From contig JAHJQF010000001.1 of assembly GCA_018819405.1 (NCBI GenBank), forward strand, positions 817,469 to 881,468: 64,000 nt of DNA, in the 5' to 3' direction. Both the position numbers and the translations under genes were made by a program. The DNA is from Patescibacteria group bacterium (GTDB lineage: Bacteria; Patescibacteriota; Patescibacteriia; UBA1558; GWA2-36-10). Position 1 is the stretch's first letter, and every line of letters starts with the position of its first letter. The notes under the pieces were generated by a model. The model saw only the letters and a list, made by a program, of their open reading frames with translations, did no database searches and had not been told where the DNA came from. Below are positions 1,056 to 37,515 of this stretch, in pieces.

Positions 1056-1352
1056 TTAAATTATACGATAATAAAGATCGTCCCAATATGGATTTTCTTT
1101 TTCTATAAGCTCCAACTTCCACTTTCTATTCCATTTTTTAAGTTGTTTTTCTCTCATTATAGCCAAAGTTATATCATATATTATTTCATAATAAACTAAC
1201 TTGTGTATTCCATACCTTTTTGTAAATCCGTCGTGTAGCTTATTTTTATGCTCAAATACGCGCCTAACTATATCATTGGTAACGCCTATATATAATGTAC
1301 CATTTCTTTTATTTGCTAAAATATAAATATAATACTCTTTGTACATAATCAC
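1056..1352 (-). CDS. GIY-YIG nuclease-family small protein (YhbQ/UPF0213-like)
   Basis: 98 aa with YIYIL...GTLYIGVTNDIVRRVFEHK (GIY-YIG core with conserved R and E). Flanked by hairpin elements. Confidence 0.75.
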   Translation of the reverse strand: MIMYKEYYIYILANKRNGTLYIGVTNDIVRRVFEHKNKLHDGFTKRYGIHKLVYYEIIYDITLAIMREKQLKKWNRKWKLELIEKENPYWDDLYYRII

Positions 1353-1366
1353 TTTCCTTCTTTGCT

Positions 1367-1395
1367 GGATTCCCGGGTCAAGCCCGAGAATGACG
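1367..1395 (+). repeat. GC-rich hairpin element copy 3 (ggattcccgggtcaagcccgagaatgacg)
   Basis: Same GGATTCC...GAATGACG frame as copies 1 and 2 with a different stem sequence. Confidence 0.5.
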
Positions 1396-1397
1396 AA

Positions 1398-3026
1398 TTA
1401 TGGCATCTTTTGTACTTTATATAAGATAAAATTATCCCATATTTGGCTAGGCTCTGCTAAATCTAAGTTTAGCTCATTGGCTGCTTGCCGGTCAACTTGA
1501 ATTTTTTCCTCACTCTCATTGCTATAATAATAAACTGGCACTACATCTACAATATTTTTGACCCTCTCCCACAAAGGCAAATCACCCTGAAAAGCTATCA
1601 CTCTATATTTTGGGAAAAATACTTTATCAGATCTCTCTGAAATAATAACAGCATCATCCTCCACTAGAGAACTCACTCTCTCATATTGAGCATAATAATT
1701 ATTTAAGGTCTTACGATTTTCCAAGAGCCCATCATGCTCAGACATAAACGCCAACTTGAGAGATGAAACTACAATAATACTAACTACTACATAAGAGGCT
1801 ATCTTGTTTGTTGTACTACTACCCATAAACAATTCTTTGATAGCTAAAGCTACCAAAGGAAGTATCCAGATATATAAAGGCATAAAATATCTGACATAAG
1901 AAATAGAAATTGTGTTTAGCTCTTTGACCAATGGATCTGCCAAATTCCAAGAAGCATAATAAAGAAGTATTAAAATAAAAATAAAAGGACTAATCAATAA
2001 ATATTTTTTCCAGGCCAATGATCTTTTTTTGTACTTGCTGATCAAAAGTACAAATCCAGCTACCGCCAATACAAAATGTGGCAGTATTATATCAATATAA
2101 TACTTATAAAAATTCTTTAATATCAAAACAAAATTAAAACCAAAAGGAGCAATCAATAATTTTATATAAGAAAAAATACCCCTTGATTGAAGCTGTATCT
2201 CAGAATCAACCTGACCGGACTGTAAATTGAGATAACCAAATGTAAAATAGCCACCATAAGTAGCTTTATTAAGTGAAAAAAATCCAAATAAGACTGCCAC
2301 TAGTACCAAAAGACCAAAAACAATTTTTTTGGCACTCAAAATATCACGCTTAATATACAAAACAAATAAACTAATAAGAGCTAGCCAAACTACTTCGGTT
2401 GGCCTGACGACAACTGCCAAAGATAATAGAAAACTACCCAGTATCCACCATAGTTCGTGCTTGGACTTAAAACTTTTTACTATTGCCCACCAACCGCCAA
2501 GTACAAGAAATACAAACATGACCGTCGGCACCATGACAACATTGGCAAAAAATACCCATGGGGCTAAAGACAAAAATAATAATGTGCTAATAAAAGCAAT
2601 GTCCAAGTCTTTGAATAAATACAGTACTAATCTATAAACTAGCCAAGCGCTAAACATAGCCATCAAAGGAGTAATAAATAATACTCCATAAGCTCCTAAT
2701 ATTTTATAAAACAAGGAAAAAACCACTATGGATGGCAAAAAAGCCATCGGCACCAAAGAGCCCTCTAGTACATTGACACTTCTAGCGTGTAATAGATTAT
2801 TAGTTATTAGATTGAGCGGCTCATAGACAAATAGTAAACGGGTATTAGCATAGCTAGAAGCAAAAAAATGGTTGGCTGTTGCATCAGGCCAGTTAAAAAT
2901 CAAATGCTCAAATTGCATCCATTTGGGCCACCAAACAGTAATATTATTAAAATTATATATAATCAAAAATATCACTGATAAAAAAACCAGTAAAAATTGA
3001 TATCTTTGTTCTTTAGTTAGTTCCAC
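1398..3026 (-). CDS. Polytopic membrane glycosyltransferase, GT-C type (ArnT/PMT GT39/GT83-like)
   Basis: 542 aa with more than 10 predicted TM helices and an N-terminal GT-C-like region, adjacent to GT2/GT4 genes. No exact family match verified. Confidence 0.5.
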   Translation of the reverse strand: MELTKEQRYQFLLVFLSVIFLIIYNFNNITVWWPKWMQFEHLIFNWPDATANHFFASSYANTRLLFVYEPLNLITNNLLHARSVNVLEGSLVPMAFLPSIVVFSLFYKILGAYGVLFITPLMAMFSAWLVYRLVLYLFKDLDIAFISTLLFLSLAPWVFFANVVMVPTVMFVFLVLGGWWAIVKSFKSKHELWWILGSFLLSLAVVVRPTEVVWLALISLFVLYIKRDILSAKKIVFGLLVLVAVLFGFFSLNKATYGGYFTFGYLNLQSGQVDSEIQLQSRGIFSYIKLLIAPFGFNFVLILKNFYKYYIDIILPHFVLAVAGFVLLISKYKKRSLAWKKYLLISPFIFILILLYYASWNLADPLVKELNTISISYVRYFMPLYIWILPLVALAIKELFMGSSTTNKIASYVVVSIIVVSSLKLAFMSEHDGLLENRKTLNNYYAQYERVSSLVEDDAVIISERSDKVFFPKYRVIAFQGDLPLWERVKNIVDVVPVYYYSNESEEKIQVDRQAANELNLDLAEPSQIWDNFILYKVQKMP

Positions 3027-12598: not shown

Positions 12599-12877
12599 GT
12601 GACAACTTCGAAGGTAAGACTGCTGCCACAGGGGCGGGTATTTCTGGAGGAGTTGATCCGACTCAGGATCAGCAAACGATACGACCTCGACGAAGTAGTC
12701 GAAAAGTTGAACGCCGCTATCAGCGGGCGCAAATTCAACGGCTGTTGGGCCTTCATCGAGTTCGGCATCGCCGCTACCGACCCCCAGGTGATCTGTCTGC
12801 AGTTCACGCAGGACGGACAACCGGGTACGTTCACGTTCTCACAAGAGAACATTGACAACATCCTGGCTGAATACTGA
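12599..12877 (+). CDS. Hypothetical 92-aa protein in GC-rich cassette A
   Basis: RBS caggaggaaaataatc, then a GTG start. Visibly GC-rich ORF with E. coli-like codons, followed by a hairpin terminator. No recognisable domain. Confidence 0.5.
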   Translation: MTTSKVRLLPQGRVFLEELIRLRISKRYDLDEVVEKLNAAISGRKFNGCWAFIEFGIAATDPQVICLQFTQDGQPGTFTFSQENIDNILAEY

Positions 12878-17362: not shown

Positions 17363-18709
17363 CTACAAGAGGTGTACTTCGTCTATCTCACTTATTTTAT
17401 TACGTAATACTATATTTTCTATATGATAGGTGCCCATTTTAGGAGCATCTAAAAATCCTTCCATAGCCGCTTCAGCCAGCCAGCCAGAGTTGAGCCAGTC
17501 AAACAGCCATTCATCCACATAATTTGGATCCATGCTGTCTACACCCGCCCCGATAGCCAACAACCAACCTCGATTGTACCTTTCCTGATAGCCAATCGGC
17601 TCAGTCATAATAATAGGCAATCCCAAAGCACTATAAAAAGTAAGCTCTGACGGTTTGGTCCACAAAATATCTGTCTTTCTCAAGAGTTTATTAAATATTT
17701 TAAAATAATCCATTTTGTCCTCAGCATAAATCAATTGGACATTTTCACAATTCCCTAGACCACAACTTTTGACTACACTCTGATAGTAAATATAAACATC
17801 ATTTCTAACTCCGGCAATGAGGTTTAGCCTTATTTCTCCTGCTTTGAGGTATTTGTGTAGCCTTTTTAAAATAATTACTCCAATATCACGCTGAGCACCA
17901 GCTCCACCGACAGCAAAAGTAATACTCAATGGCCGTTTGGGATTTTTTATATTTTTGACAGGACCAAGATAATCTTCTATCAATTTGGCATATTTTTTTC
18001 TATAAATACCCCTAGGGTCAAGTTTAAATATTCTGGCGCTCAAATCACTACGAAGTATCTTTTGAGCGCTGCCACCGATATTTTCTTTTGGCAAGGGAAA
18101 ACCTGTCACATAAATTTTTTCTGGACGCACACCATAGAGTTTTAATCTTTGCTTCACTCGCTTATTTGGAACCAAATATTTAATCCTACTTTTACCCGGA
18201 TAAAAAGGTGCCCAAGCACGAGCCACATCAGCATCGCAAACTATCAAATATATATCTCCTTTGTAACCATGATGCTCCGCAAAGTAAGCTGGTACAAAAA
18301 AAGTAGTTAAAAATGGCAATGGCTTGTCATAATTTTTGGGAATACGCTGATTGAGCTCTTCCACCAAATGACGCCCCAGTCCACCTTTGACTTGATTGAA
18401 AAAATATTTTTGTTGCTGAGAATTTTTGGACAAATCCCTTTGTGGATAAAGCGGCTCTATTTTTTGAAAATTATCCATTATTTTAAAAGCCGTAGTGCCC
18501 AAAAATGGTACTTTTTTGAAACGAGATATTATTTCATACCATCTGCGTCCGCTGTTCCACTGTTTTTCCTCGCTTCTACTAATACCCTGATAATGATTGG
18601 CATTAGTAATACCACGATAAGCACTCTCCAAAAAAGGATAAGCCGCGCGCTGATGACCGTAGCCCATATCAACTGCCACTACGTGCATCAATTCTTTTTG
18701 TTTTGACAT
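17363..18709 (-). CDS. Putative GT-B fold glycosyltransferase (MurG/UgtP/MGDG-synthase-like)
   Basis: 448 aa. The N-terminus has VAVDMGYGHQRAA. The C-terminal half has FAVGGAGAQ and LGLPIIMTEPIGYQERYNRGWLLAIGAGV, resembling a GT28 C-domain. Confidence 0.4.
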   Translation of the reverse strand: MSKQKELMHVVAVDMGYGHQRAAYPFLESAYRGITNANHYQGISRSEEKQWNSGRRWYEIISRFKKVPFLGTTAFKIMDNFQKIEPLYPQRDLSKNSQQQKYFFNQVKGGLGRHLVEELNQRIPKNYDKPLPFLTTFFVPAYFAEHHGYKGDIYLIVCDADVARAWAPFYPGKSRIKYLVPNKRVKQRLKLYGVRPEKIYVTGFPLPKENIGGSAQKILRSDLSARIFKLDPRGIYRKKYAKLIEDYLGPVKNIKNPKRPLSITFAVGGAGAQRDIGVIILKRLHKYLKAGEIRLNLIAGVRNDVYIYYQSVVKSCGLGNCENVQLIYAEDKMDYFKIFNKLLRKTDILWTKPSELTFYSALGLPIIMTEPIGYQERYNRGWLLAIGAGVDSMDPNYVDEWLFDWLNSGWLAEAAMEGFLDAPKMGTYHIENIVLRNKISEIDEVHLL

Positions 18710-18826
18710 TTTTATTTTTATTTACTCTCCTACTAAAAAGATTCGTCTAATTTCTAATATTAGATATTTCTTTACCAGCTTTGCGGCGGTGTTTTTTCTT
18801 GGCTAATTTCTTTTTCTTATTCACTT

Positions 18827-18855
18827 TGTTAGACCTGTTAAAAATTAATTAAAAG
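18827..18855 (-). promoter_or_regulatory. Copy of the conserved upstream motif (TTAATTAATTTTTAACAGGTCTAACAAA-GTG), degenerate
   Basis: On the minus strand it reads ttaattaatttttaacaggtctaacaaa directly 5' of a GTG-initiated 25-codon basic ORF. Confidence 0.4.
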
Positions 18856-18940
18856 GCGTTAAAAAATAGACTTCTAAGTAGCCCCTCTAAGGTTTATAGT
18901 ATTATTATACCACAAATTACTATCATAAACCAAAAAATTA

Positions 18941-19114
18941 TTTATCAGTTATCTTATTTAAAATATAAACAAAAATTAATCCATAAAAATAATATTCTAA
19001 ACTTATAAAACGATTTACCATACCAGTATTAAAAACTTCCATGAATAAAAGAATTATCCATGTAAAAAATGCTATCTGAAAAAAATCATTTAAAATAAGA
19101 TGTAAAGTTTTCAT
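18941..19114 (-). CDS. Small hydrophobic ORF (57 aa), hypothetical
   Basis: ATG directly preceded by ttaatttttaacgggtctaatggg (conserved motif). Encodes MKTLHLILNDFFQIAFFTWIILLFMEVF... Below the ORF-track cutoff. Confidence 0.3.
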
Positions 19115-19146
19115 CCCATTAGACCCGTTAAAAATTAATTAAATAA
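19115..19146 (-). promoter_or_regulatory. Copy of the conserved upstream motif (TTAATTAATTTTTAACGGGTCTAATGGG-ATG)
   Basis: The plus strand reads cccattagacccgttaaaaattaattaaataa. Confidence 0.5.
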
Positions 19147-19186
19147 GTATTTTTATATTTTAATTTATTTCTAAATTCAACAGAAA

Positions 19187-19702
19187 TTATCTTTTAAGTA
19201 TTATTTGCCAATTGTTTATTAGACTTACTACCGAAGTATCTGATATATTAGGTAAAGATAAAATAATCTCCAGTTGATTATTTTTTGTCAGAGCATCAGC
19301 TAGGGCAAAAGTCAAAGAAAAATTATTGTTGGCTATATTTTTCCATTGCCAAGATCCGTCTTTTTGGCGTAGACCAATATTTATTTCTGTCGCTTCATCA
19401 AAATAAAAACTACCCTCTATAGTCATCATATCAAAATCAACTGGTGTATAAATTTTCATATAAATTGGTTCGCCTAGGATATCAAAAGTTTGACCTTCCA
19501 AACGATCAAAAACTGGAGTCAATCTAGATTCCGGATACCAGCCTCTTATATCACGGCTAAGAGATTGCGAAAAATCCAAATGATATTTCAAATCACGCTT
19601 TGTATAAATCCCTTTATTCAATATAAACAAAAGTAAAAGAAGGGAAAAAATCAGCCAAATATAACGAAAAACCTTAACTATTGAATTTTTATCTAAAGTC
19701 AT
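19187..19702 (-). CDS. Hypothetical membrane-anchored protein (171 aa)
   Basis: N-terminal TM helix, AT-rich native ORF. Confidence 0.4.
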   Translation of the reverse strand: MTLDKNSIVKVFRYIWLIFSLLLLLFILNKGIYTKRDLKYHLDFSQSLSRDIRGWYPESRLTPVFDRLEGQTFDILGEPIYMKIYTPVDFDMMTIEGSFYFDEATEINIGLRQKDGSWQWKNIANNNFSLTFALADALTKNNQLEIILSLPNISDTSVVSLINNWQIILKR

Positions 19703-19766
19703 ATATATATATTTTAGCAGAAACTTTACTATTTACCAAAGTATTTGCTAAAATAAAGTCAAGATT

Positions 19767-21869
19767 ATGCTTAGTTTCAGTAGAATACAAAATATTTTTT
19801 CTCAACTTTTATTGGCTCTTGTTATATTGGGCAACGTTTTTTTATTCCACAATACTAAAATAGGCCTTATTTTTGGTCTATTTTATCTATGGCTAAACAG
19901 TAAAAAGATAGCCGATATGTATGCCTCCAATATCCACCAAGGCCTAAAAAATGTGATGGGGCTTTTGACTATCTTAGCTTATATATCACTTGTATACACC
20001 ATGGCCTACCACTTGTGGCAAATAAACATTTATATCTGGCTATTTGTCTTCTTATCTATACCACTAGCTGTTGAGATACTTTCTTACTACCAAAATAGCC
20101 GACACTATTTTTTGACCAATACTAATTTTGGTTTTCTCAAAATCAGTCATATCAGAAAAACTATTTTACCTTTAGCTGTAATTGTTTTGGATATAATACT
20201 TGTTTCAGCTCTATTTAAAAAAGCCAGTCTGGGCATTATACGATCCCCTTGGGAGCTAGTTGGATTTAGATTTTGGTTGGTGTTTGCCCTTTCAAACTTC
20301 AGTTTGGCCGCCAGTATTATTGACCAAAAATCTTATAAAAATATAATACTTATTTGTTGGCATTTTTTCCTTATTTCTAGTATTGGAATTATTTTATATC
20401 CCCTAGGCTATGGCTATGACTCTTTTATACATCTAGCTGTTTTAGAAAATATCAACCAGACAGGCACTATAGAACCACGTCTTTTTCTTTATATTGGACA
20501 ATATGCTTTGACATTTTTCCTTAGCAATATATTGCAAATATCTATTGCTACTGCCAACAAACTGTTGATGCCGGCTCTATTTAGTATTTTTTGGCCAACC
20601 AGTCTATATTATGGTTTACGATACGGATTTAACTGGTCATACAAAGCTAGCTACCTAGCAGTTTTATGGAGTCTATTTATTGGCTTCAACTTTGCTATCA
20701 TGACCACTCCCCAATCTTTGACTTTTTTACTGCTGGCTATTTTTGTTTTCATACTGCCGGAAATAAACAAAAAGACTATTAGTCTCTATTTTACCCTGTT
20801 ATTAAGTCTCATGGCTCTTACTATCCACCCCTTAGTGGGTATACCAATGCTTTTCTTTACGACTATTTTAGCTATCTGGAAATTAAAAAAACACAAAAAA
20901 ACAAACCTTATATTAAAAGTCATTGCCTACGGATCATCAATTATGATATTGCCAGTTTTGTTTGCAATATATCAAAAAATAAATCAATTTAGCTGGCAGG
21001 AAATAATAAAGATAAACTGGTGGCCAATCATAAATCTACCTCGTATTTTTTGGTTTAAAAGCTATAGCTTTCCCCTTGATATGATCCACAATATTGGAGC
21101 CAACCAGTTTTGGATATACTCTCTGATAGTATTATTGGGCGTTTATGCCATATTCAGAGAAAACAAATATATTTTTTTCAAAAGACTCCTGATATTTTCC
21201 GGTCTTATATTGGCTAATTATCTACTAGCTTCCATATTTTTGTCTTTTAATCTACAAATTAGCTATCAAAAACATGACTACATCAACAGAATAGTATTTA
21301 TGCTGGCTATTATGCTTTTACCTATATTTCTAACTGCTGTTTATTTTTGGTGGAGTTCTGTTTTGAAGAAAAACAAACTAAGCCAAAAAACTTTTATTGC
21401 TGTCTTAACTACTATGGTGATATCTGTCAGCACTTATTTTAGTTATCCTGTATATGACCAACATGCCAACAGCAAAAGTTTTAATATCACTTCTACTGAC
21501 CTAAAAACTGTCCAGGCTATAGAAAATGATGCTCAAGGTCAAAACTATATAGTACTAGCCAATCAAATGTTAGGAGCAGCGGCTATATACCAATATGGTT
21601 TCCGAAATTACTATAATGAAAATTTTTATTATTCTATGCCGCTTGGTTCAGATAATATTTACCAAAATTTTCTCAATATGATAGAAAATGAGGCTAGCGT
21701 AGAAGAAGTGGTTATGGCGATGGATAAAGCCGGTGTGGATAAAGTTTATTTTGTAGTCAACAACTATTGGCACAGCGCCAAACAAGCCATTAAGCAGGCC
21801 GAAGAGACTGCTGACAAGAAATTATCTATAGATAATGGAATAAATACTGTGTTTATCTATAATCGCTAA
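19767..21869 (+). CDS. Large polytopic membrane protein (700 aa), possible GT-C-type glycosyltransferase
   Basis: About 14 predicted TM helices over ~550 aa plus a soluble C-terminal domain. Confidence 0.35.
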   Translation: MLSFSRIQNIFSQLLLALVILGNVFLFHNTKIGLIFGLFYLWLNSKKIADMYASNIHQGLKNVMGLLTILAYISLVYTMAYHLWQINIYIWLFVFLSIPLAVEILSYYQNSRHYFLTNTNFGFLKISHIRKTILPLAVIVLDIILVSALFKKASLGIIRSPWELVGFRFWLVFALSNFSLAASIIDQKSYKNIILICWHFFLISSIGIILYPLGYGYDSFIHLAVLENINQTGTIEPRLFLYIGQYALTFFLSNILQISIATANKLLMPALFSIFWPTSLYYGLRYGFNWSYKASYLAVLWSLFIGFNFAIMTTPQSLTFLLLAIFVFILPEINKKTISLYFTLLLSLMALTIHPLVGIPMLFFTTILAIWKLKKHKKTNLILKVIAYGSSIMILPVLFAIYQKINQFSWQEIIKINWWPIINLPRIFWFKSYSFPLDMIHNIGANQFWIYSLIVLLGVYAIFRENKYIFFKRLLIFSGLILANYLLASIFLSFNLQISYQKHDYINRIVFMLAIMLLPIFLTAVYFWWSSVLKKNKLSQKTFIAVLTTMVISVSTYFSYPVYDQHANSKSFNITSTDLKTVQAIENDAQGQNYIVLANQMLGAAAIYQYGFRNYYNENFYYSMPLGSDNIYQNFLNMIENEASVEEVVMAMDKAGVDKVYFVVNNYWHSAKQAIKQAEETADKKLSIDNGINTVFIYNR

Positions 21870-21938: not shown

Positions 21939-22220
21939 TTAAAGTACAGCGTCTTTACAAGCCTTAGCTACACGGAATTTTACTACAGTTTTAGCTGGGA
22001 TTCTGATAGTTTCGCCAGTAGCCGGATTGCGGCCGTCACGGGCAGCACGGTGTTTTTTTACTAGTTTACCCAAACCTGGGACAGTAAATTCACCACTTGT
22101 TTTGACCTCTTTGTAGGCTAACTCTCCTAATGTATCCATTAAACTGGTTACATCTTTTTTGCTTAGTCCAGTCTTTTCTGACAAGACATTAAACAATTGT
22201 GACTTGGTTAATTTTGCCAT
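21939..22220 (-). CDS. hup: DNA-binding protein HU
   Basis: 93 aa: MAKLTKSQLFNVLSEKTGLSKKDV...GRNPATGETIRIPAKTVVKFRVAK, the canonical HU/IHF fold signature. Confidence 0.9.
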   Translation of the reverse strand: MAKLTKSQLFNVLSEKTGLSKKDVTSLMDTLGELAYKEVKTSGEFTVPGLGKLVKKHRAARDGRNPATGETIRIPAKTVVKFRVAKACKDAVL

Positions 22221-22447
22221 AAGCGTAATATTAACTTATTAATTATTATTTTTCATCAATAAATATAGCACATTTAAAAAAGTTTGTGAATATTTGTCAA
22301 TAAAAATGGGGGAAAACTTATACACAGTTACAAAAATTTGTCAAATTACTGGGTTTTTTGCTTTTTATTTTTATTTCAAAGAAAGGCCCCGGAGTCAAAA
22401 AGACTACGGGGCCATCACCATCATCAATAACAGAGAGAAGTGCCAAT

Positions 22448-22615
22448 TCAGATCAGGTTGGCAATGTTGTAGCTGCACTTGCGTCTGTGCTGACCATCTG
22501 TGCATTTGCACTCCTGGCAGATGTCTCGTCTCGTATCTGCTGCCTGACGCTCCTCCTGAGTAACAGTAGTGTCCTCACGCTTGTCGCTCATATTGTACCT
22601 TCTTTCGTTGGACAT
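22448..22615 (-). CDS. GC-rich cassette B, gene 3: 55-aa Cys-containing mini-protein
   Basis: RBS ggaggtaggctg then ATG. MSNERRYNMSDKREDTTVTQEERQAADTRRDICQECKCTDGQHRRKCSYNIANLI, followed by hairpin ggccccg...cggggcc. Confidence 0.45.
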   Translation of the reverse strand: MSNERRYNMSDKREDTTVTQEERQAADTRRDICQECKCTDGQHRRKCSYNIANLI

Positions 22616-22626
22616 CAGCCTACCTC

Positions 22627-22830
22627 CTAAATATTTGCCGCATCCACAGATACCGCAGCGATTTTTGCTGCTTCCAGCTCCTCTTGTCTGAGTTTTTTGA
22701 GCCTCTCCAGGCAAGAAATTGGCGTGCAAAATTCCTGCCCGCAAAAATTACAACGCCATTTCCCTTTTGGCAGATTTCGATTGCCTTGGCAATCGTCCCC
22801 AGCTTCTGCTTCCTTGGACAAATCAGTCAT
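22627..22830 (-). CDS. GC-rich cassette B, gene 2: 67-aa Cys-rich mini-protein (zinc-ribbon-like)
   Basis: MTDLSKEAEAGDDCQGNRNLPKGKWRCNFCGQEFCTPISCLERL... The AAGGAGG directly abuts the ATG (suboptimal spacing), so the start is uncertain. Confidence 0.4.
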   Translation of the reverse strand: MTDLSKEAEAGDDCQGNRNLPKGKWRCNFCGQEFCTPISCLERLKKLRQEELEAAKIAAVSVDAANI

Positions 22831-22850
22831 CCTCCTTGATTGTTCTCCGA

Positions 22851-22931
22851 CTAACAGCCGAAGGTAGTGGGAAAGTAGCTGTCAAACAGCTCGTCGTCGC
22901 TGGCGTCATAGCCGAAAAAATTGTTGCTCAT
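22851..22931 (-). CDS. GC-rich cassette B, gene 1: 26-aa peptide MSNNFFGYDASDDELFDSYFPTTFGC
   Basis: RBS gaggag 8 nt before the ATG. First of three tandem small ORFs. Confidence 0.3.
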   Translation of the reverse strand: MSNNFFGYDASDDELFDSYFPTTFGC

Positions 22932-23217
22932 TGTCAGAACTCCTCTGTTTGATGGTTAGTGACTTGTGGTGGAATGTACACTTCTAAAACACCAAAAAAG
23001 CCGCCTTATTGGCGACCTGCATTTTTTGATGTTTAGAAGTTAAATAATTACTACTAGCAAAAAAGCAATCGCCTAAGGCGTCAACAAAATAATGCTAATA
23101 ATGATAATCAAACTTCTAAACATATATTTATATAAATAATAATATCACCACTAAAAAAGACTGTCAATATTTAGATGCGGCTGGTTTTCCTTTGGAAAAC
23201 CAGCCGCCAAAGCACTG

Positions 23218-23448
23218 CTAACCGCGCCAAAATCCCAGGGCAGGAGTATTGAGAATATTCTCGTTGGAAACCCCCAACACTGGATCTCCAGACTCAACAT
23301 CTAAGCTGGCCTGGCACTCGTGTTCTGCACAAGCATCAATAATGCTCCACCCTTTCTGGTAGCGAACCGTTGCCGGACGACTGACGCCCGATTGATCACA
23401 GATTGTACAGACTCCCTCTCCTGACCTAAGAGCCAGCCTCTTAGCCAT
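23218..23448 (-). CDS. GC-rich cassette C: 76-aa CxxC...CxxHxC mini-protein
   Basis: RBS cacggaggtgttgac then ATG. MAKRLALRSGEGVCTICDQ...DACAEHECQ, followed by hairpin gcggctggtttt...aaaaccagccgc. Confidence 0.45.
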   Translation of the reverse strand: MAKRLALRSGEGVCTICDQSGVSRPATVRYQKGWSIIDACAEHECQASLDVESGDPVLGVSNENILNTPALGFWRG

Positions 23449-23544
23449 GTCAACACCTCCGTGATTGTAATGATAGAGCTCATCTTGGAGCTCCCCCAGT
23501 TTTATCAGAGATTTCCTCCTATCCTAGTTTAGTAGTCAATAGTA

Positions 23545-23733
23545 TCAAAACCCATCCCCCTTTATCTGCCCGTTAGGCAAACTGGAATTGGAGACAATTT
23601 CCTGAGCAACTGTCGGCGCCTCTTTATCCGTATTTTCCAGATACAGACACTGATCATAGCGGCCACGCAGACAGTTTCGACAATAGCAGATTTCCATAAA
23701 TCCGCCGCTGGGATGTGGGATTTTCTGACGCAT
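23545..23733 (-). CDS. GC-rich cassette D: 62-aa Cys-containing mini-protein
   Basis: RBS aaaggagggtggtc then ATG. MRQKIPHPSGGFMEICYCRNCLRGRYDQCLY... A TTGACA lies upstream on the minus strand (-35 candidate). Confidence 0.45.
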   Translation of the reverse strand: MRQKIPHPSGGFMEICYCRNCLRGRYDQCLYLENTDKEAPTVAQEIVSNSSLPNGQIKGDGF

Positions 23734-23982
23734 GACCACCCTCCTTTGTGCACTAAGTGCGGTTGAATGCTTATGTCAATGAACTCTATCAAAAAAGGCC
23801 GCTGTTAGGCGACCTTTATTTTGTATAATTTATAAATTTTGAAATATATGATTACACAAAACTAGGTCGTCTGAGCGTCCAAAATAAATGAAATGCGAAT
23901 ATAGGTGTGATTTAGTTTTGTGAAATTTATTATCATATTGAATTTAGCTTATCATAGCTTAAAATATCTTGTCAAATGTTTT

Positions 23983-24996
23983 TTAATTTTTAACATCAAA
24001 ATCCAAGAAAAAACCATAATGAGCTCTTTTTCTAAATTGAGGGCTCCTCAAATTCAACTTTTCTATAATACCTTTAGGGGACAAATCATAACCTTCTATT
24101 TCTATGGACTTGCCGTCAACTAAAGCTGTGGCCATGACTGGTTGTGGGTGTCCGATGGCATAAGCTAATTTTACCAAGACCTCTTTGGCATTATATTTTT
24201 TGAGATACTCTACTGCCAAATAACGAGCCATATAAGCGGCGGATCTATCTACTTTGGTGGAATCTTTACCTGAAAAACAACCTCCACCAACTGGGATTTG
24301 AGGGCCATAGTTGTCAGCGGTTATTTTCCTACCGGTCAAGCCAGTATCAGCTTCAAAACCTCCTTGGACAAAAGGGCCAGCCGGATTGATAAATATATTT
24401 TTGTATTCTGGGATTATAGGTTTTACTACTTCTTCTTCTATTAATTGTTTTAGTTTTTCAAAATCAACATCAGCCTTGTGTTGAGTGGAAACTACTACTG
24501 TATCCACTACTTGATTGTCATTTAAAGTGACCTGAGCTTTAGCATCAGGCATAAGATATTGAGATAATTCTGTTTTAGCTTCATTGCGAATTTCTTCTAG
24601 TTTTCTGACTAGTTTTGTGGCTAAAACATGTTCTATAGGCAACATTTCAGGAGTTTCACTGGTAGCATAGCCGACCATAATACCCTGATCACCTGCTCCA
24701 CCGGTATCAACACCACGAGCAATATCTGGACTTTGTTTTACTATATTTACCAATATCTCTAATTCTTCTTTATAACCTATATCTTTATATACATCTCTGG
24801 CAATTTGAGCGGCATCAAATTTGGCAGTTGTAGTCACTTCTCCCATTATGACTAATTTTCCATGACCACCTAAAGCCTCCACTGCTACCCGACTAGTAGG
24901 ATCTTGACGCAAACATTCATCTAAAATAGCGTCCGATATTTGATCACATACTTTATCAGGATGTCCATAAGTAATTTGTTCTGCAGTTTTCAACAT
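23983..24996 (-). CDS. metK: S-adenosylmethionine synthetase (short form)
   Basis: 337 aa with GHPDKVCDQISDAILD, GGGCFSGKD and GDQGIMVGYA motifs. Confidence 0.9.
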   Translation of the reverse strand: MLKTAEQITYGHPDKVCDQISDAILDECLRQDPTSRVAVEALGGHGKLVIMGEVTTTAKFDAAQIARDVYKDIGYKEELEILVNIVKQSPDIARGVDTGGAGDQGIMVGYATSETPEMLPIEHVLATKLVRKLEEIRNEAKTELSQYLMPDAKAQVTLNDNQVVDTVVVSTQHKADVDFEKLKQLIEEEVVKPIIPEYKNIFINPAGPFVQGGFEADTGLTGRKITADNYGPQIPVGGGCFSGKDSTKVDRSAAYMARYLAVEYLKKYNAKEVLVKLAYAIGHPQPVMATALVDGKSIEIEGYDLSPKGIIEKLNLRSPQFRKRAHYGFFLDFDVKN

Positions 24997-25020: not shown

Positions 25021-25155
25021 AAAAAACTCTCTTTTTATTATAGAGAGTAGATTCGTCATCTTTCCCTCCAAATAGGGTTGGACTTAGCACCTTTCTAAAA
25101 GTAGGTTGCTGACGGATCATAGAGCCAAATCTCTCCCCGTTCTCTTGATAATTTA
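25021..25155 (-). promoter_or_regulatory. SAM-I (S-box) riboswitch with intrinsic terminator, in the metK leader
   Basis: The minus strand reads TTATCAAGAG..GGGAGAGA..GGCTCTATGA..GTCAGCAACC..AAGGTGCTAAGTCC..GGAGGGAAAG, then hairpin actctct-ataataaaa-agagagt plus TTTTT. This matches the S-box consensus blocks. Confidence 0.7.
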
Positions 25156-26540: not shown

Positions 26541-26728
26541 AATTAAATTATAACATATTTTACAGATAAATATAATAAATATTGACTAAAGGTGGTTTTT
26601 AGGTTACATTATTTAAATAATCTCGGCCCTTTTCATTTGCAACATAGAAAGGAGGTTTTGACAGTTCAAGGATGAACGCTAGCTCTTGAAGCTAGCACAA
26701 AACAAACCCTAGGAACAGGAGTTCCAAA

Positions 26729-27067
26729 ATGCAAGCAAGTGCTGCTATTTTCAATCAGCTCCTCGACACGCTGGGAGTGCCGAGCCGACAGAGGCCGCTC
26801 AACAATGAGCAGGCCGAAAGACTCGGTATGCAACTGGTCCACGTCTGGCAAAAAAACAGCAAACTGCTGGCAGCTGCCCATCGCAACTTGCCAGCAAGTC
26901 GCCACGAAGCTGGGCGCTTGGCTCGGATGAATGGTGACCATTGTCACCATTTGGCAACAGCCATGGTCGCCAAGATGGACCAGATCGCTCCCGACAACGA
27001 TCCGATACTCTCCTCAGTCGTGAGGTCTCTCAACGAATCACTTGCTCACAATCAGGCCTCGGCCTGA
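26729..27067 (+). CDS. GC-rich cassette E: hypothetical 112-aa helical protein
   Basis: RBS aggag 7 nt before the ATG. An upstream leader holds a 5-codon mini-ORF (ATGAACGCTAGCTCTTGA) embedded in the hairpin gctagct-cttga-agctagc. Confidence 0.5.
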   Translation: MQASAAIFNQLLDTLGVPSRQRPLNNEQAERLGMQLVHVWQKNSKLLAAAHRNLPASRHEAGRLARMNGDHCHHLATAMVAKMDQIAPDNDPILSSVVRSLNESLAHNQASA

Positions 27068-27085
27068 TTCTCGCCAACTCCTTTC

Positions 27086-27128
27086 GACCCCGTCGCGCAA
27101 ACTTGTACGACGGGGTCTTCTTTTTTTA
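27086..27128 (+). terminator. Rho-independent terminator of cassette E
   Basis: gaccccgtcgcgcaaacttgtacgacggggtc followed by ttcttttttt. Confidence 0.7.
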
Positions 27129-27134
27129 TACCCG

Positions 27135-36014: not shown

Positions 36015-36470
36015 ATGGAACGGAAATACCTGACTTTTGAAATGTCCGGACAGATCATTGCACTATGGGTTCTGCAAATTAAAGAAATCTCTGATATGCA
36101 AAATATTCATCTGGTACCCAACGCTGGCGACGGTCTGCTGGGCGTGTTCGCATTGCGAGGTCGCAACATACCGGTCTTTGAATTCCGCACTGGCGAGCCG
36201 CGAATCAGCGAATGCATCATCGTCATCAAAGTGGATGCACCCAATCTGCATAGTTTCGCGCTGATCGTGGATAGACCCGAAGAGGTCTTGAGTATTCCGG
36301 ATGATTTGCCTCGCTCGCCGATCGAAGAAAAAACTCTGCGTCAAGCAGTGACGCCGGCTTGTCAAGGTATCAAATACCAGGTCTCCCACGATGACCGCCA
36401 ATTCTGGCTGATGGATCCTGAGAACATCCTGAGCAAAGAGCAGTTGGCCAGAGCCGCCTCACTGCTCTAG
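36015..36470 (+). CDS. GC-rich cassette F, gene 1: CheW-like domain protein (151 aa)
   Basis: TTGACA-17-TACTAT promoter, RBS ctggaggaaagtac then ATG. Core LTFEMSGQIIALWVLQIKEISDMQNIHLVPNAGDGLLGVFALRGRNIPVFEFR matches the CheW fold (hhxFxhxxxxYxhxhxxVxEIxxxxxIxxVPxxPxxhxGhhNLRGxxhPVhDLR). Confidence 0.65.
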   Translation: MERKYLTFEMSGQIIALWVLQIKEISDMQNIHLVPNAGDGLLGVFALRGRNIPVFEFRTGEPRISECIIVIKVDAPNLHSFALIVDRPEEVLSIPDDLPRSPIEEKTLRQAVTPACQGIKYQVSHDDRQFWLMDPENILSKEQLARAASLL

Positions 36471-36521: not shown

Positions 36522-36830
36522 ATGATTCACTTTGAGCTGCACCTGCTGGCGTCCAGTCTCGGCCATTTCAAATCAGAAATACAGTTCAAAATAACCGACG
36601 TCGCCGAAAAACTGGAACTTCGCGAGGCTACTCTGGAGATCATCGAGGTCAAGTGCCTAATCAATTTGAACAACGCCTCGGCCTACCCTCACGATTGGGG
36701 GCGCCTGATCATTCAATGTGATGATAGCCACATGATCCAGGAAATCATAAAGGCACTGCAGGAGTCTGACTTCGGTATGATGATCAGCACCACAACCGAT
36801 GTTTTTGTCCCATCCCGACCCACGACATGA
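36522..36830 (+). CDS. GC-rich cassette F, gene 2: hypothetical 102-aa protein (possible ACT/ferredoxin-like fold)
   Basis: RBS acaaggagtctgcc then ATG, co-oriented 50 nt after the CheW-like gene, followed by terminator gccggggtccca-catatg-ggactccggc plus T6. Confidence 0.5.
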   Translation: MIHFELHLLASSLGHFKSEIQFKITDVAEKLELREATLEIIEVKCLINLNNASAYPHDWGRLIIQCDDSHMIQEIIKALQESDFGMMISTTTDVFVPSRPTT

Positions 36831-37337: not shown

Positions 37338-37350
37338 TTTGGTCTTTTGA

Positions 37351-37473
37351 GGGGGAGTAGTATAGTGGTAGTCCACCCAGCCGCTCGCGAGCAGCTGGGA
37401 CAGGGGTCTCCACCCAGCCCTTCGCGAAGGGCTGGGTCCACCACAGCCACCATTGTTGGCTGGGTCCAAAACC
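37351..37473 (+). pseudogene. 5' portion of a split tRNA-like gene (acceptor + D-arm + CCA-type anticodon-stem region) interrupted by three GC-rich hairpin elements
   Basis: gggggagtagtatagtggtag, then hairpins tccacccagccgctcgcgagcagctggg, acccagcccttcgcgaagggctgggtcc and accacagccaccattgttggctgggtcc between ggtctcc and aaaacc. No T-arm. Its acceptor is complementary to the 3' piece at 37933-37939. Confidence 0.45.
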
Positions 37474-37515
37474 TAAAAAAGCATAATTAAAACAAGAAAA
37501 GCGATTATTTATTAT

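Follow-up and report, generated by a model that had tools for sequence, protein, structure and literature searches.

A candidate leader-peptide attenuator family ahead of cysteine-rich mini-protein cassettes in a Patescibacteria group bacterium

In a 64-kb stretch of DNA from a Patescibacteria group bacterium (contig JAHJQF010000001.1, 1.04 Mb long; the whole stretch is called the window below, and coordinates refer to it), the 1.76 kb between the genes metK and HU form a variable island. The bacterium is a Komeilibacteria-like member of the Candidate Phyla Radiation (CPR), and the whole analysis is computational. We read the island as two operons of mini-proteins, each behind a ribosome-mediated (trp-type) transcription attenuator, and we consider this reading fairly probable. 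A conserved AT-rich leader precedes both cassettes in the window and in every relative that carries them, with 11 copies in the window and five relatives. Our confidence in this architecture is high; it is moderate for the ribosome as the sensor and low for the function of the cargo.

CPR bacteria, or Patescibacteria, make up a large share of bacterial diversity, and to our knowledge their gene regulation is almost unexplored because few of them can be grown. A leader recognisable by its short open reading frame (ORF), terminator and antiterminator would be a testable case of attenuation control in CPR bacteria, and it points to what these reduced symbionts may monitor, namely the supply of isoleucine (Ile) and of phenylalanine or tyrosine (Phe/Tyr), or ribosome stalling.

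Two leader subtypes and their alternative folds

The leaders fall into two subtypes, type I (seven copies) and type II (four copies), which are homologous in their 3′ halves (nhmmer comparison of a type I hidden Markov model with type II, E = 7.5e-9). The window holds exactly two copies, a type I leader at 23975-23791 and a type II leader at 23167-22993, each ahead of a cassette (Table 1). A leader starts with TTGACA and an extended -10 element (TGnTAnnnT), and 9-15 nt further on comes the ATG of a short ORF without a Shine-Dalgarno (SD) motif. In the middle are a weak hairpin of segments 1 and 2 (1:2), with a TAG stop codon in or beside segment 2, a T-run and 30-45 AT-rich nt leading to an A-run. 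The end consists of a GC hairpin, X, formed by segments 3 and 4 (3:4), then 5-7 T and, 45-130 nt later, the SD motif of the first cassette gene; a consensus scan gave no promoter-like site between X and the first cassette ORF.

The initial annotation of this stretch had described a TTGACA-17-TATTAT promoter for the second cassette, followed by stacked terminator-like hairpins at 23056-23081 and 22992-23020, and had taken the arrangement for an attenuator-like leader rather than simple termination. The promoter was recovered by the consensus scan. The two hairpins are the 1:2 hairpin and the X hairpin of the type II leader; as terminators they stand unequally, the one at 23018-22998 being found by our scan with its T-run and the one at 23080-23070, although also followed by a T-run, being a weak helix of 4 bp. 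Mutually exclusive folds, described below, support the attenuator proposal and extend it to both cassettes. The second, homologous leader ahead of A62 and B76 (23975-23791), the short leader ORFs and the hairpin near-copy at 23815-23791 go beyond that annotation.

The type I alignment shows conservation of both promoter elements, TTGACA and TGnTAnnnT, and the type I promoter of the window begins 8 nt past the metK stop codon. The type II promoter is about 74% similar to the HU promoter region (22250-22295). A target-site duplication was considered for this 46-nt similarity and rejected; the resemblance is one of promoter consensus.

Pairing over the seven type I leaders amounts to 93.8% for X, which has 5-7 U behind it in every copy, and to 77% for helix 1:2. 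The type I hairpin of the window, X1, is a near-copy of the hairpin at 23018-22994 (0/100 shuffles gave two matches). It probably also ends read-through from metK, but as the native metK terminator it was rejected, since relatives without the island have no such hairpin: in L002-L004 (labels of this form denote our sequence records), which are 55-57% identical to the window in the neighbouring 700-aa protein, the metK-HU spacer is only 246, 91 and 112 bp long and contains no X-type hairpin. The same comparison disposes of convergent terminators of the neighbouring genes, the explanation that the initial annotation had named as an alternative. As an observation of its own, a box GAT(A/G)GAGTTC(A/T)TT stands right after the U-tract of X in most type I leaders (23786-23775 in the window), and in the type I alignment the conserved GATGGAGTTC box comes after the U-tract.

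The short ORFs are themselves conserved. The L007 orthologue of the type I leader peptide is MIIKNTKLTHTYIRISFILDVSAT, and the other type I peptides are MQDKSKQLSQNYFSFYFFFFSRQAT, MQDISKQLNQNYFGFYFFFSRQAT, MNNISKQLNRNFFGFYFFFSRQAT, MNINQPKLSSIYFRFYFISRQAA and MNKQIEQSNFLKVYFIIGRLTT. Just 9 nt separate the type I ATG from the -10 element, and a near-leaderless mRNA is therefore probable. The type II ORF occurs in four genomes (the window, L015, L008 and L011) as MFR[SGN]LIIIISIILL[TA]P, and its stop codon sits in the loop of the 1:2 hairpin. An in-frame ATG...TAG is present in 11/11 leaders (7/7 type I), and the single indel is 3 nt long. For the three closest type I copies, the ratio of non-synonymous to synonymous changes (pN/pS) is 0.10-0.21 in frame versus 0.62-0.77 in the other frames, from small counts. 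The leader ORFs thus appear to be under purifying selection, with mostly synonymous substitutions. Codons -8 to -6 before the type I stop, directly upstream of segment 1, read FFF, FFF, FFF, YFI, FII, FIL and FIL in the seven copies; the Ile run of type II lies in the 5′ arm of a long helix, S1.

In both subtypes an extended pairing of segments 2 and 3 (2:3) excludes the terminator. For the window, the type I 2:3 duplex has a computed energy of -20.0 kcal/mol versus -8.9 for the terminator hairpin, with 0/200 shuffles as good, and the type II duplex has -16.5 kcal/mol versus -8.9 for its X hairpin, X4, with 1/200 shuffles as good. Over all leaders the duplex ranges from -17 to -23 kcal/mol in type I and from -14.5 to -19 in type II, whereas X reaches only -7 to -13.5; the duplex is about twice as stable as X, and shuffled partners equal it in 0-4/200 cases. 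The 13-bp antiterminator helix of type I is 87.9% paired over seven leaders, with covariation at a UA/UG/CG pair. In the four type II leaders, the linkers beside segments 2 and 3 covary (TTGC/GCA, TCG/CGG, CTAC/GTAG).

Type II adds S1, a helix of 28 bp that is found in both the minimum-free-energy and the consensus folds. Over its 28 pairs in four sequences, 99.1% of cells are paired; seven pairs with one-sided changes stay paired and one is compensatory, while slid alignments used as a control reach at most 56% paired. S1 would act as an anti-antiterminator.

The leaders were also folded with a 30-nt ribosome footprint masked. With the footprint on the stop codon, the terminator formed in every leader. 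Without a footprint it formed in most leaders, and leaders win1, L008_1 and L009_1 gave an extended 1:4 + 2:3 hairpin. A footprint on the Ile run gave the antiterminator in win2, L015 and L011_2 (three of the four type II leaders), and one at the corresponding type I position did so in two of seven.

We infer that a trp-type attenuator is the simplest model that uses every conserved element. Each operon would be transcribed from a host-type extended -10 promoter through the AT-rich leader, and the SD-less leader ORF would be translated while RNA polymerase transcribes the leader. Because the stop codon lies in or beside segment 2, a ribosome that reaches it would cover that segment; in an untranslated leader the 1:2 hairpin would form, joined in type II by the 28-bp S1. 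With the ribosome at the stop codon or with no translation at all, the 3:4 hairpin and its U-tract would form and transcription would stop short of the first cassette gene. If the ribosome instead stalled, on the Ile run in type II or the Phe/Tyr/Ile run in type I, it would cover segment 1 or melt S1; in type I, a stall at codons -8 to -6 would place the leading edge of the ribosome between segments 1 and 2. After such a stall the more stable, extended 2:3 helix would form, no terminator would arise and the cassette would be transcribed. The switch would in this way report a low supply of charged tRNA or general translation stress; with a genome of about 1 Mb, the organism likely depends on imported amino acids.

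Mini-protein cassettes at a conserved locus

The five co-oriented minus-strand ORFs listed in the initial annotation are all present where it placed them, and its two groups correspond to A62-B76 (cassette 1) and C26-D67-E55 (cassette 2). There is good reason to take them as genes: an SD motif (AGGAGG, GGAGGTG or GAGGAG) precedes 5/5 of them at a spacing of 5-11 nt, and A62, B76, D67 and E55 have homologues at the metK-HU locus of relatives. Among the host ORFs of at least 200 aa, 36/37 have no SD-like motif within 20 nt of the start. GC content at third codon positions (GC3) is 0.44-0.74 in the mini-ORFs versus 0.24-0.37 in HU, metK and their neighbours, and the spacer contains two blocks of about 50% GC (22400-22950 and 23200-23780, with an AT-rich stretch between them) in a window of about 35% GC. 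The genome appears to use two classes of translation-initiation signal, with GC-rich accessory ORFs, nearly all led by AGGAGG-type sites, beside host genes that mostly lack an SD motif, a contrast that is useful for gene finding. Existing annotation mostly misses the cargo: one pipeline called B76 alone, and NCBI lists A62 (hypothetical protein KKH39_04340) and D67 (hypothetical protein KKH39_04335), adjacent locus tags that suggest nothing else was called.

The true start of D67 is probably the TTG at 22821 (64 aa), because AAGGAGG abuts the ATG. A 60-aa ORF that overlaps B76 (23483-23301) was rejected as a gene because B76 has a homologue in L008. We likewise rejected the GC-rich blocks as structured non-coding RNA, given that 5/5 ORFs have a well-spaced SD motif and four have protein homologues; nor are the blocks a known structured RNA, because the Rfam search of the window gave nothing for them at gathering or E-value thresholds.

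The cargo consists of proteins of 50-80 aa, in which a module of about 30 residues with four Cys (or Cys/His) is joined to a disordered, often acidic tail. The Cys motifs are CYCRNC in A62, CTIC...CAEHEC in B76, CNFCGQEFC in D67 and CQECKC in E55. No homology was found among the five proteins, or between them and the other GC-rich ORFs of the window and of L006. In the A family C16, C18 and C21 are invariant, and the fourth Cys, C29, is Ser in P0010; the D and E families have three invariant Cys each. The alignment of B (three sequences) has only C41 and His44 invariant, and its CxxC pair is common to B76 and the L008 homologue alone. AlphaFold2, given the six-member A alignment, predicts for A62 a beta-hairpin and short helix over residues 1-30 (predicted local distance difference test, pLDDT, 82-85) with a disordered tail; for B76 alone it predicts a similar hairpin and helix over residues 10-45 (pLDDT about 80) with a disordered C-terminal half. 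The conserved Cys of both proteins fall within the ordered parts. Cys spacing and these models suggest that the mini-proteins probably bind zinc. The initial annotation had called them zinc-ribbon-like, and the Cys clusters of A62 and B76 do lie within a modelled beta-hairpin plus helix at a pLDDT of about 80; a match to a known fold in Pfam, PDB or Foldseek searches was not obtained.

Similarity to known proteins is confined to the relatives. Pfam, PHROGs, PADLOC and NCBIfam gave no significant match for the five proteins and five relatives, PDB profile searches with the mini-proteins gave no match, and Foldseek with the A62 model found nothing in the PDB at E <= 0.001. Word-index protein searches with B76 (5.8 billion clusters) and D67 returned only the queries themselves, a scan of genome contigs with B76 gave no match, exact look-ups of A62 and E55 in a contig index gave no record, and a metagenome scan with the A-family profile gave only two spurious loci of 68% GC (L013, L014). 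The cargo would define at least four new families of Cys-rich mini-proteins. Our guess, held with low confidence, is that these proteins are small regulators or effectors induced by stress, with nucleic acid or protein as their binding partner.

In contrast to the short spacers of L002-L004, GC-rich cassettes occupy the metK-HU place in the closer relatives L006, L007/L015, L008 and L009, and the island appears to be a lineage-specific insertion at a conserved locus. A full HMMER search with A62 gave a family of P0004, P0005, P0006 and P0008 with the core R-x-IPHPxGGxMEVCYCxxCLxGxxDxC, to which a profile search added P0010. On contigs of sufficient length (L007, L008, L009/L010 and L015), all Komeilibacteria-like, A-family members lie directly after metK or before HU; the contigs of P0008, L011/L012, are about 1 kb long and too short to show either gene. 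The A-family contigs share the AT/GC mosaic of the window. B76 is 38% identical to a 72-aa ORF of L008. D67 is homologous to a 71-aa ORF of L015, with which it shares CxFCGQxFCxPISCLExL, and to the N-terminal part of an L008 ORF, and E55 to the last cassette ORF of L015, with the C-terminal Cys motif and the ...Y-x-[IV]-x-N-L end in common. C26 has no counterpart, its slot being taken by a 79-aa ORF in L015, by an 88-aa ORF in L011 and by nothing in L008. Upstream of HU, L006 carries a different pair of SD-led ORFs rich in Cys.

Divergence is uneven along the locus. In the closest relative, L007/L015, protein identity to the window is 91% for metK, 95% for HU, about 53% for A and about 33% for D and E; between the window and L015 the cargo DNA has no detectable similarity, while the leader core is nearly identical. 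The mini-proteins appear to evolve or to be exchanged far faster than the flanking housekeeping genes. Such extreme divergence of the cargo beside near-identical leaders and housekeeping genes suggests cassette exchange or diversifying selection, and divergence this much faster than that of housekeeping neighbours is typical of conflict or interaction genes. As a side observation, aromatic-Gly C-termini are common among the small acidic cassette proteins (C26 ..FPTTFGC, L008 ..WPFWGGC, L015 ..GWPIGF, L011 ..GIWNGF, A62 ..KGDGF) and may represent a shared C-terminal recognition motif.

Table 1. Features of the island and other features of the window
Feature	Position	Strand	Description
HU	21939-22220	-	Flank of island
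Cassette 2 terminator	22378-22412	-	GGCCCCGTAGTC/GACTCCGGGGCC, then T-rich tail; upstream of HU promoter (22290-22262)
E55	22615-22448	-	SD AGGAGGT at 6 nt; charged N-half; C-terminal CxxCxC...C-[ST]-Y-x-[IV]-x-N-L
D67	22830-22627	-	CxFCGQxFCxPISCLExL Cys cluster, then helical tail
C26	22931-22851	-	26 aa, MSNNFFGYDASDDELFDSYFPTTFGC; SD GAGGAG at 8 nt; acidic, aromatic, ends FGC
Hairpin X4 (segments 3:4)	22993-23018	-	AGGTCGCC-AATAA-GGCGGCTT, then T-run; putative attenuator terminator of cassette 2
Type II antiterminator	23009-23073	-	GGCGATTGCTTTTTTG (23073-23058) pairs with CAAAAAATGCAGGTCGCC (23028-23011); excludes S1 and terminator
Type II helix S1	23029-23123	-	Arms 23123-23093 and 23059-23029; 28 bp; encloses 1:2 hairpin and T-run; holds leader ATG
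Type II 1:2 hairpin	23080-23070	-	4 bp, CGCC/GGCG, weak; T-run after
Type II leader ORF	23073-23123	-	MFRSLIIIISIILLTP, 16 codons + TAG; 6 Ile codons; no SD
Type II promoter	23139-23167	-	TTGACA-17-TATTAT, TG extension; 11/12 in consensus scan; conserved in type II alignment
Cassette 1 end hairpin	23177-23207	-	Perfect 14 bp, GCGGCTGGTTTTCC/GGAAAACCAGCCGC; no T-run; about 10 nt 5′ of next promoter
B76	23448-23218	-	76 aa; SD GGAGGTG at 5 nt; GEGVCxxC...TVRY...IDxCxxH(EC)
A62	23733-23545	-	62 aa; SD AGGAGG at 6 nt; core IPHPxGGxMEICYCxxCLRGxYDQC, disordered tail
Hairpin X1 (segments 3:4)	23791-23815	-	GGTCGC-CTAACA-GCGGCC, then TTTTTT; putative attenuator terminator of cassette 1
Type I antiterminator	23809-23869	-	Segment 2, stop and T-rich stretch (23869-23846) pair with A-rich stretch and segment 3 (23832-23809); excludes terminator
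Type I segments 1:2	23862-23880	-	Weak GGACG/CGACC hairpin; TAG directly after segment 2, then T-run
Type I leader ORF	23862-23936	-	MIINFTKLNHTYIRISFILDAQTT, 24 codons + TAG; no SD; ATG 9 nt past -10
Type I promoter	23946-23975	-	-35 TTGACA (23975-23970), extended -10 TGaTAAGCT (23954-23946)
metK	23983-24996	-	Other flank of island
Further GC-rich ORFs	12599-12877, 26729-27067, 36015-36470, 36522-36830	+
Further GC-rich ORFs	41855-41652, 44115-43897	-

On the metK side the island is followed by metK, DUF2061, a 105-aa ORF, YkuD and UvrABC, and on the HU side by HU and then the 700-aa membrane protein. An ordinary S-adenosylmethionine (S-box) riboswitch lies directly 5′ of metK at 25053-25154 on the minus strand (Rfam RF00162, 66.7 bits). 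GC-rich hairpins analogous to the one that ends cassette 1 (23177-23207) occupy the same place in relatives.

At least six further GC-rich SD-led ORFs lie in five other places of the window (GC 0.48-0.56, GC3 0.56-0.71), most of which have a host-like TTGACA/-10 promoter 5′ and a GC-rich terminator hairpin 3′. Pfam recognises a CheW-like domain in the ORF at 36015 (E = 2.4e-15), and the others match nothing; none carries a leader of the metK-HU type. In the spacer between UvrC and YkuD, a GC-rich insert is present in the window (26650-27130, with a 112-aa plus-strand ORF of GC 0.56) and also in L009 (2228-2731, 60-67% GC). The two inserts have no sequence similarity to each other, and this spacer may be a second hot spot for foreign cassettes. 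In L004, multi-kilobase blocks of 47-51% GC (1141-3000 and 18201-21780) contain SD-led genes of 62-388 aa; by eye, the C-terminus of one resembles TonB, and another resembles LemA. The L004 record carries the label Gammaproteobacteria, but its synteny is Komeilibacteria-like. A GC-rich segment of about 140 nt on the plus strand (37345-37485), between rpmG (L33, 37182-37337) and a GIY-YIG-like ORF and near tRNA-Trp, folds into nested GC hairpins (-62 kcal/mol, z = -3.35, 0/200 shuffles as stable) without an Rfam match, and may be an undescribed structured RNA or repeat element.

Weighing the explanations

Several results count against attenuation by the ribosome. Nothing connects the cassette genes with the metabolism of Ile or Phe, in contrast to the genes under classical attenuators. 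Mask folding gave the antiterminator in 5/11 leaders, for one stall position only, and the 1:4 + 2:3 hairpin that three type I leaders form without constraint also runs up to the U-tract and could be a terminator in its own right. With 4-5 bp and 77% pairing, the 1:2 hairpin is weak. Shuffle controls for helix conservation are only moderately significant (9-21/500), and the 11 leader copies stem from about six closely related genomes, which is why covariation counts are small. For the cargo, the case for zinc binding consists solely of Cys spacing and AlphaFold2 models of medium confidence. Finally, conservation of the leader peptides extends past the codons presumed to be regulatory, which would suit an arrest peptide or a functional micro-protein just as well as it suits a starvation sensor.

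The last point leads to the strongest competitor, in which the same terminator/antiterminator switch is set by a trans factor: a ligand, an RNA-binding protein (possibly a zinc-knuckle protein of the cassette, acting in autoregulation) or a metabolite-sensing arrest peptide. The alternative folds would be conserved under it too, and it would account for the parts of the peptide kept beyond the Ile/Phe codons (for example SKQL and SRQAT), for the conserved GATGGAGTTC box after the U-tract and for a cargo that resembles small nucleic-acid-binding knuckles. We nevertheless think it unlikely. The stop codon is always in or beside segment 2, and the hydrophobic or aromatic codons are exactly where a stall frees segment 2; given both placements, the ribosome model needs no extra factor. 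Moreover, there is no Rfam riboswitch match, and the stretches outside the stems are AT-rich and differ in length, unlike a ligand pocket.

A second possibility is that the AT-rich units are stand-alone small genes, either type I toxin peptides like Ibs or small RNAs, and that the cassettes are expressed by leaky read-through or from unrecognised promoters. Each unit does have a promoter, a short ORF and a strong terminator; the type II peptide MFRSLIIIISIILLTP is hydrophobic, with its start codon sequestered by a 28-bp helix, a trait shared with many mRNAs of type I toxins, and purifying selection on the leader ORFs would fit as well. The hydrophobic core of this 16-aa peptide is, however, just about 10 residues long, and the leader peptides of type I do not resemble membrane peptides. 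On the plus strand the consensus scan gave only weak promoter-like sites, and neither a conserved antisense promoter nor a conserved antisense gene was seen. All leaders (11/11) are followed on the same strand, within 45-130 nt, by a promoterless SD-led cassette, and the extended 2:3 complementarity would have no role in a stand-alone gene. We regard this explanation as distinctly unlikely.

It could also be argued that the cassettes are functionless, decaying DNA acquired horizontally (moron- or integron-like, or by uptake of foreign DNA), and that the hairpins are ordinary terminators insulating metK and HU. The foreign GC and GC3, SD sites unlike those of host genes, the presence of at least six further GC-rich SD-led ORFs in the window (one CheW-like) and the patchy distribution among relatives would all be expected of such DNA. 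Decay is nonetheless hard to reconcile with intact ORFs, with A, B, D and E families kept at the locus in relatives whose metK is 77-91% identical, and with conserved leaders. Searches for a source gave no similarity to phages (tblastn, blastn), to plasmids (tblastn) or to viral contigs (B76 and both leader motifs), and there are no attC-like sites, integrase or border direct repeats at the island and no integrase in the window. An integron attC reading of the hairpins was rejected because, at 21-31 nt, they are too short; paired core sites are absent, and the inverted and direct repeats lack attC architecture. We hold functionless foreign DNA to be very improbable.

The RiPP-like (ribosomally synthesised and post-translationally modified peptide), toxin/immunity or metal-sensing module put forward in the initial annotation, with C26 as precursor or partner of zinc-ribbon proteins, is hardly credible. 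In its favour, C26 is a short peptide, acidic and aromatic, with FGC at its end, cassette ORFs of relatives end alike (..WPFWGGC, ..WPIGF, ..IWNGF) and the partner proteins are Cys-rich, but C26 is not conserved at its position (unrelated 79-aa and 88-aa ORFs, or none, in relatives), its neighbourhood contains no gene for a modifying enzyme, transporter or protease (the closest radical SAM gene is about 10 kb away, beside uvrB), and searches of Pfam, PHROGs, PADLOC, NCBIfam and the PDB gave no match for such roles or for defence.

Starting again from two operons behind ribosome-mediated attenuators, a broader and speculative reading, which we rate as doubtful, is that the island is an expression platform. 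In it, a conserved host-type attenuator responding to translation stress or to starvation for imported amino acids would drive interchangeable, rapidly diversifying GC-rich cassettes of zinc-knuckle proteins. Cassettes would be exchanged through homology in the conserved leaders and flanks, and the mini-proteins would have their role in conflict or in interaction with a host, phage and the host cell being possible targets. If this were true, it would be the first leader-peptide attenuator family described in CPR bacteria and a new coupling of nutrient sensing to a hypervariable effector locus.

Comparison with known systems

The closest parallels are the classical amino-acid attenuators such as trpL, pheL, ilvL/ivbL, thrL and hisL (RF00513, RF01859, RF00506). 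Like these, the leaders have a short upstream ORF rich in one codon class (Ile, or Phe/Tyr), a choice between 1:2 + 3:4 and 2:3 pairing, an intrinsic terminator directly before the structural genes and a leader stop codon at which a ribosome, on terminating, would mask segment 2. The Rfam models of the Trp, Phe and Thr leaders score 17.3-23.2 bits on them, below the gathering thresholds of 41-55; these weak scores reflect shared architecture, not family membership. The differences are several. The host here is a CPR bacterium, and the leaders belong to none of the classical families by sequence or covariance model. Classical attenuators control biosynthetic enzymes, whereas the genes here encode Cys-rich mini-proteins, each family of which occurs in at most a handful of related genomes; the cargo matches no family and contains no metabolic domain, where a trp-type attenuator would be expected to precede genes of an amino-acid pathway. 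Further differences are the probably near-leaderless mRNA, the conservation of the peptide outside the regulatory codons and, in type II, the additional 28-bp helix, a putative anti-antiterminator, in which the start codon lies.

Attenuators in which an upstream ORF senses ribosome stalling also control resistance and toxin genes, as in ermC/ermK, bmrB-bmrCD, vmlR and topAI-yjhQ/toiL. With these the leaders would share a conserved short peptide whose translation state decides the expression of a non-biosynthetic cargo; they differ in that there is no homology to the leaders or cargo of those systems, and no resistance or toxin domain was detected here. The type I toxin-antitoxin systems Ibs/Sib and ShoB/OhsC are similar to type II in the 16-aa hydrophobic ORF, the start codon in a long helix and the strong terminator after it. 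In contrast to them, no antisense RNA gene is evident and the peptide lacks the length to span a membrane; that of the type I leaders is not hydrophobic, and the units always precede a co-oriented cassette and carry an antiterminator.

Phage morons and integron cassettes resemble the cargo in being small, compositionally foreign ORFs with few relatives that vary amid conserved flanks. No attC, integrase, phage context or phage similarity was found here, and an attenuator, not a constitutive cassette promoter, apparently controls expression. Searches of the literature for attenuators in CPR bacteria or for Cys-rich mini-proteins gave nothing relevant, and a leader switch of this kind looks not to have been described before in CPR bacteria. 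Within this CPR lineage the leaders appear to make up a new family of switches that resemble leader-peptide attenuators, with a mechanism of a known kind in a new setting and with new cargo.

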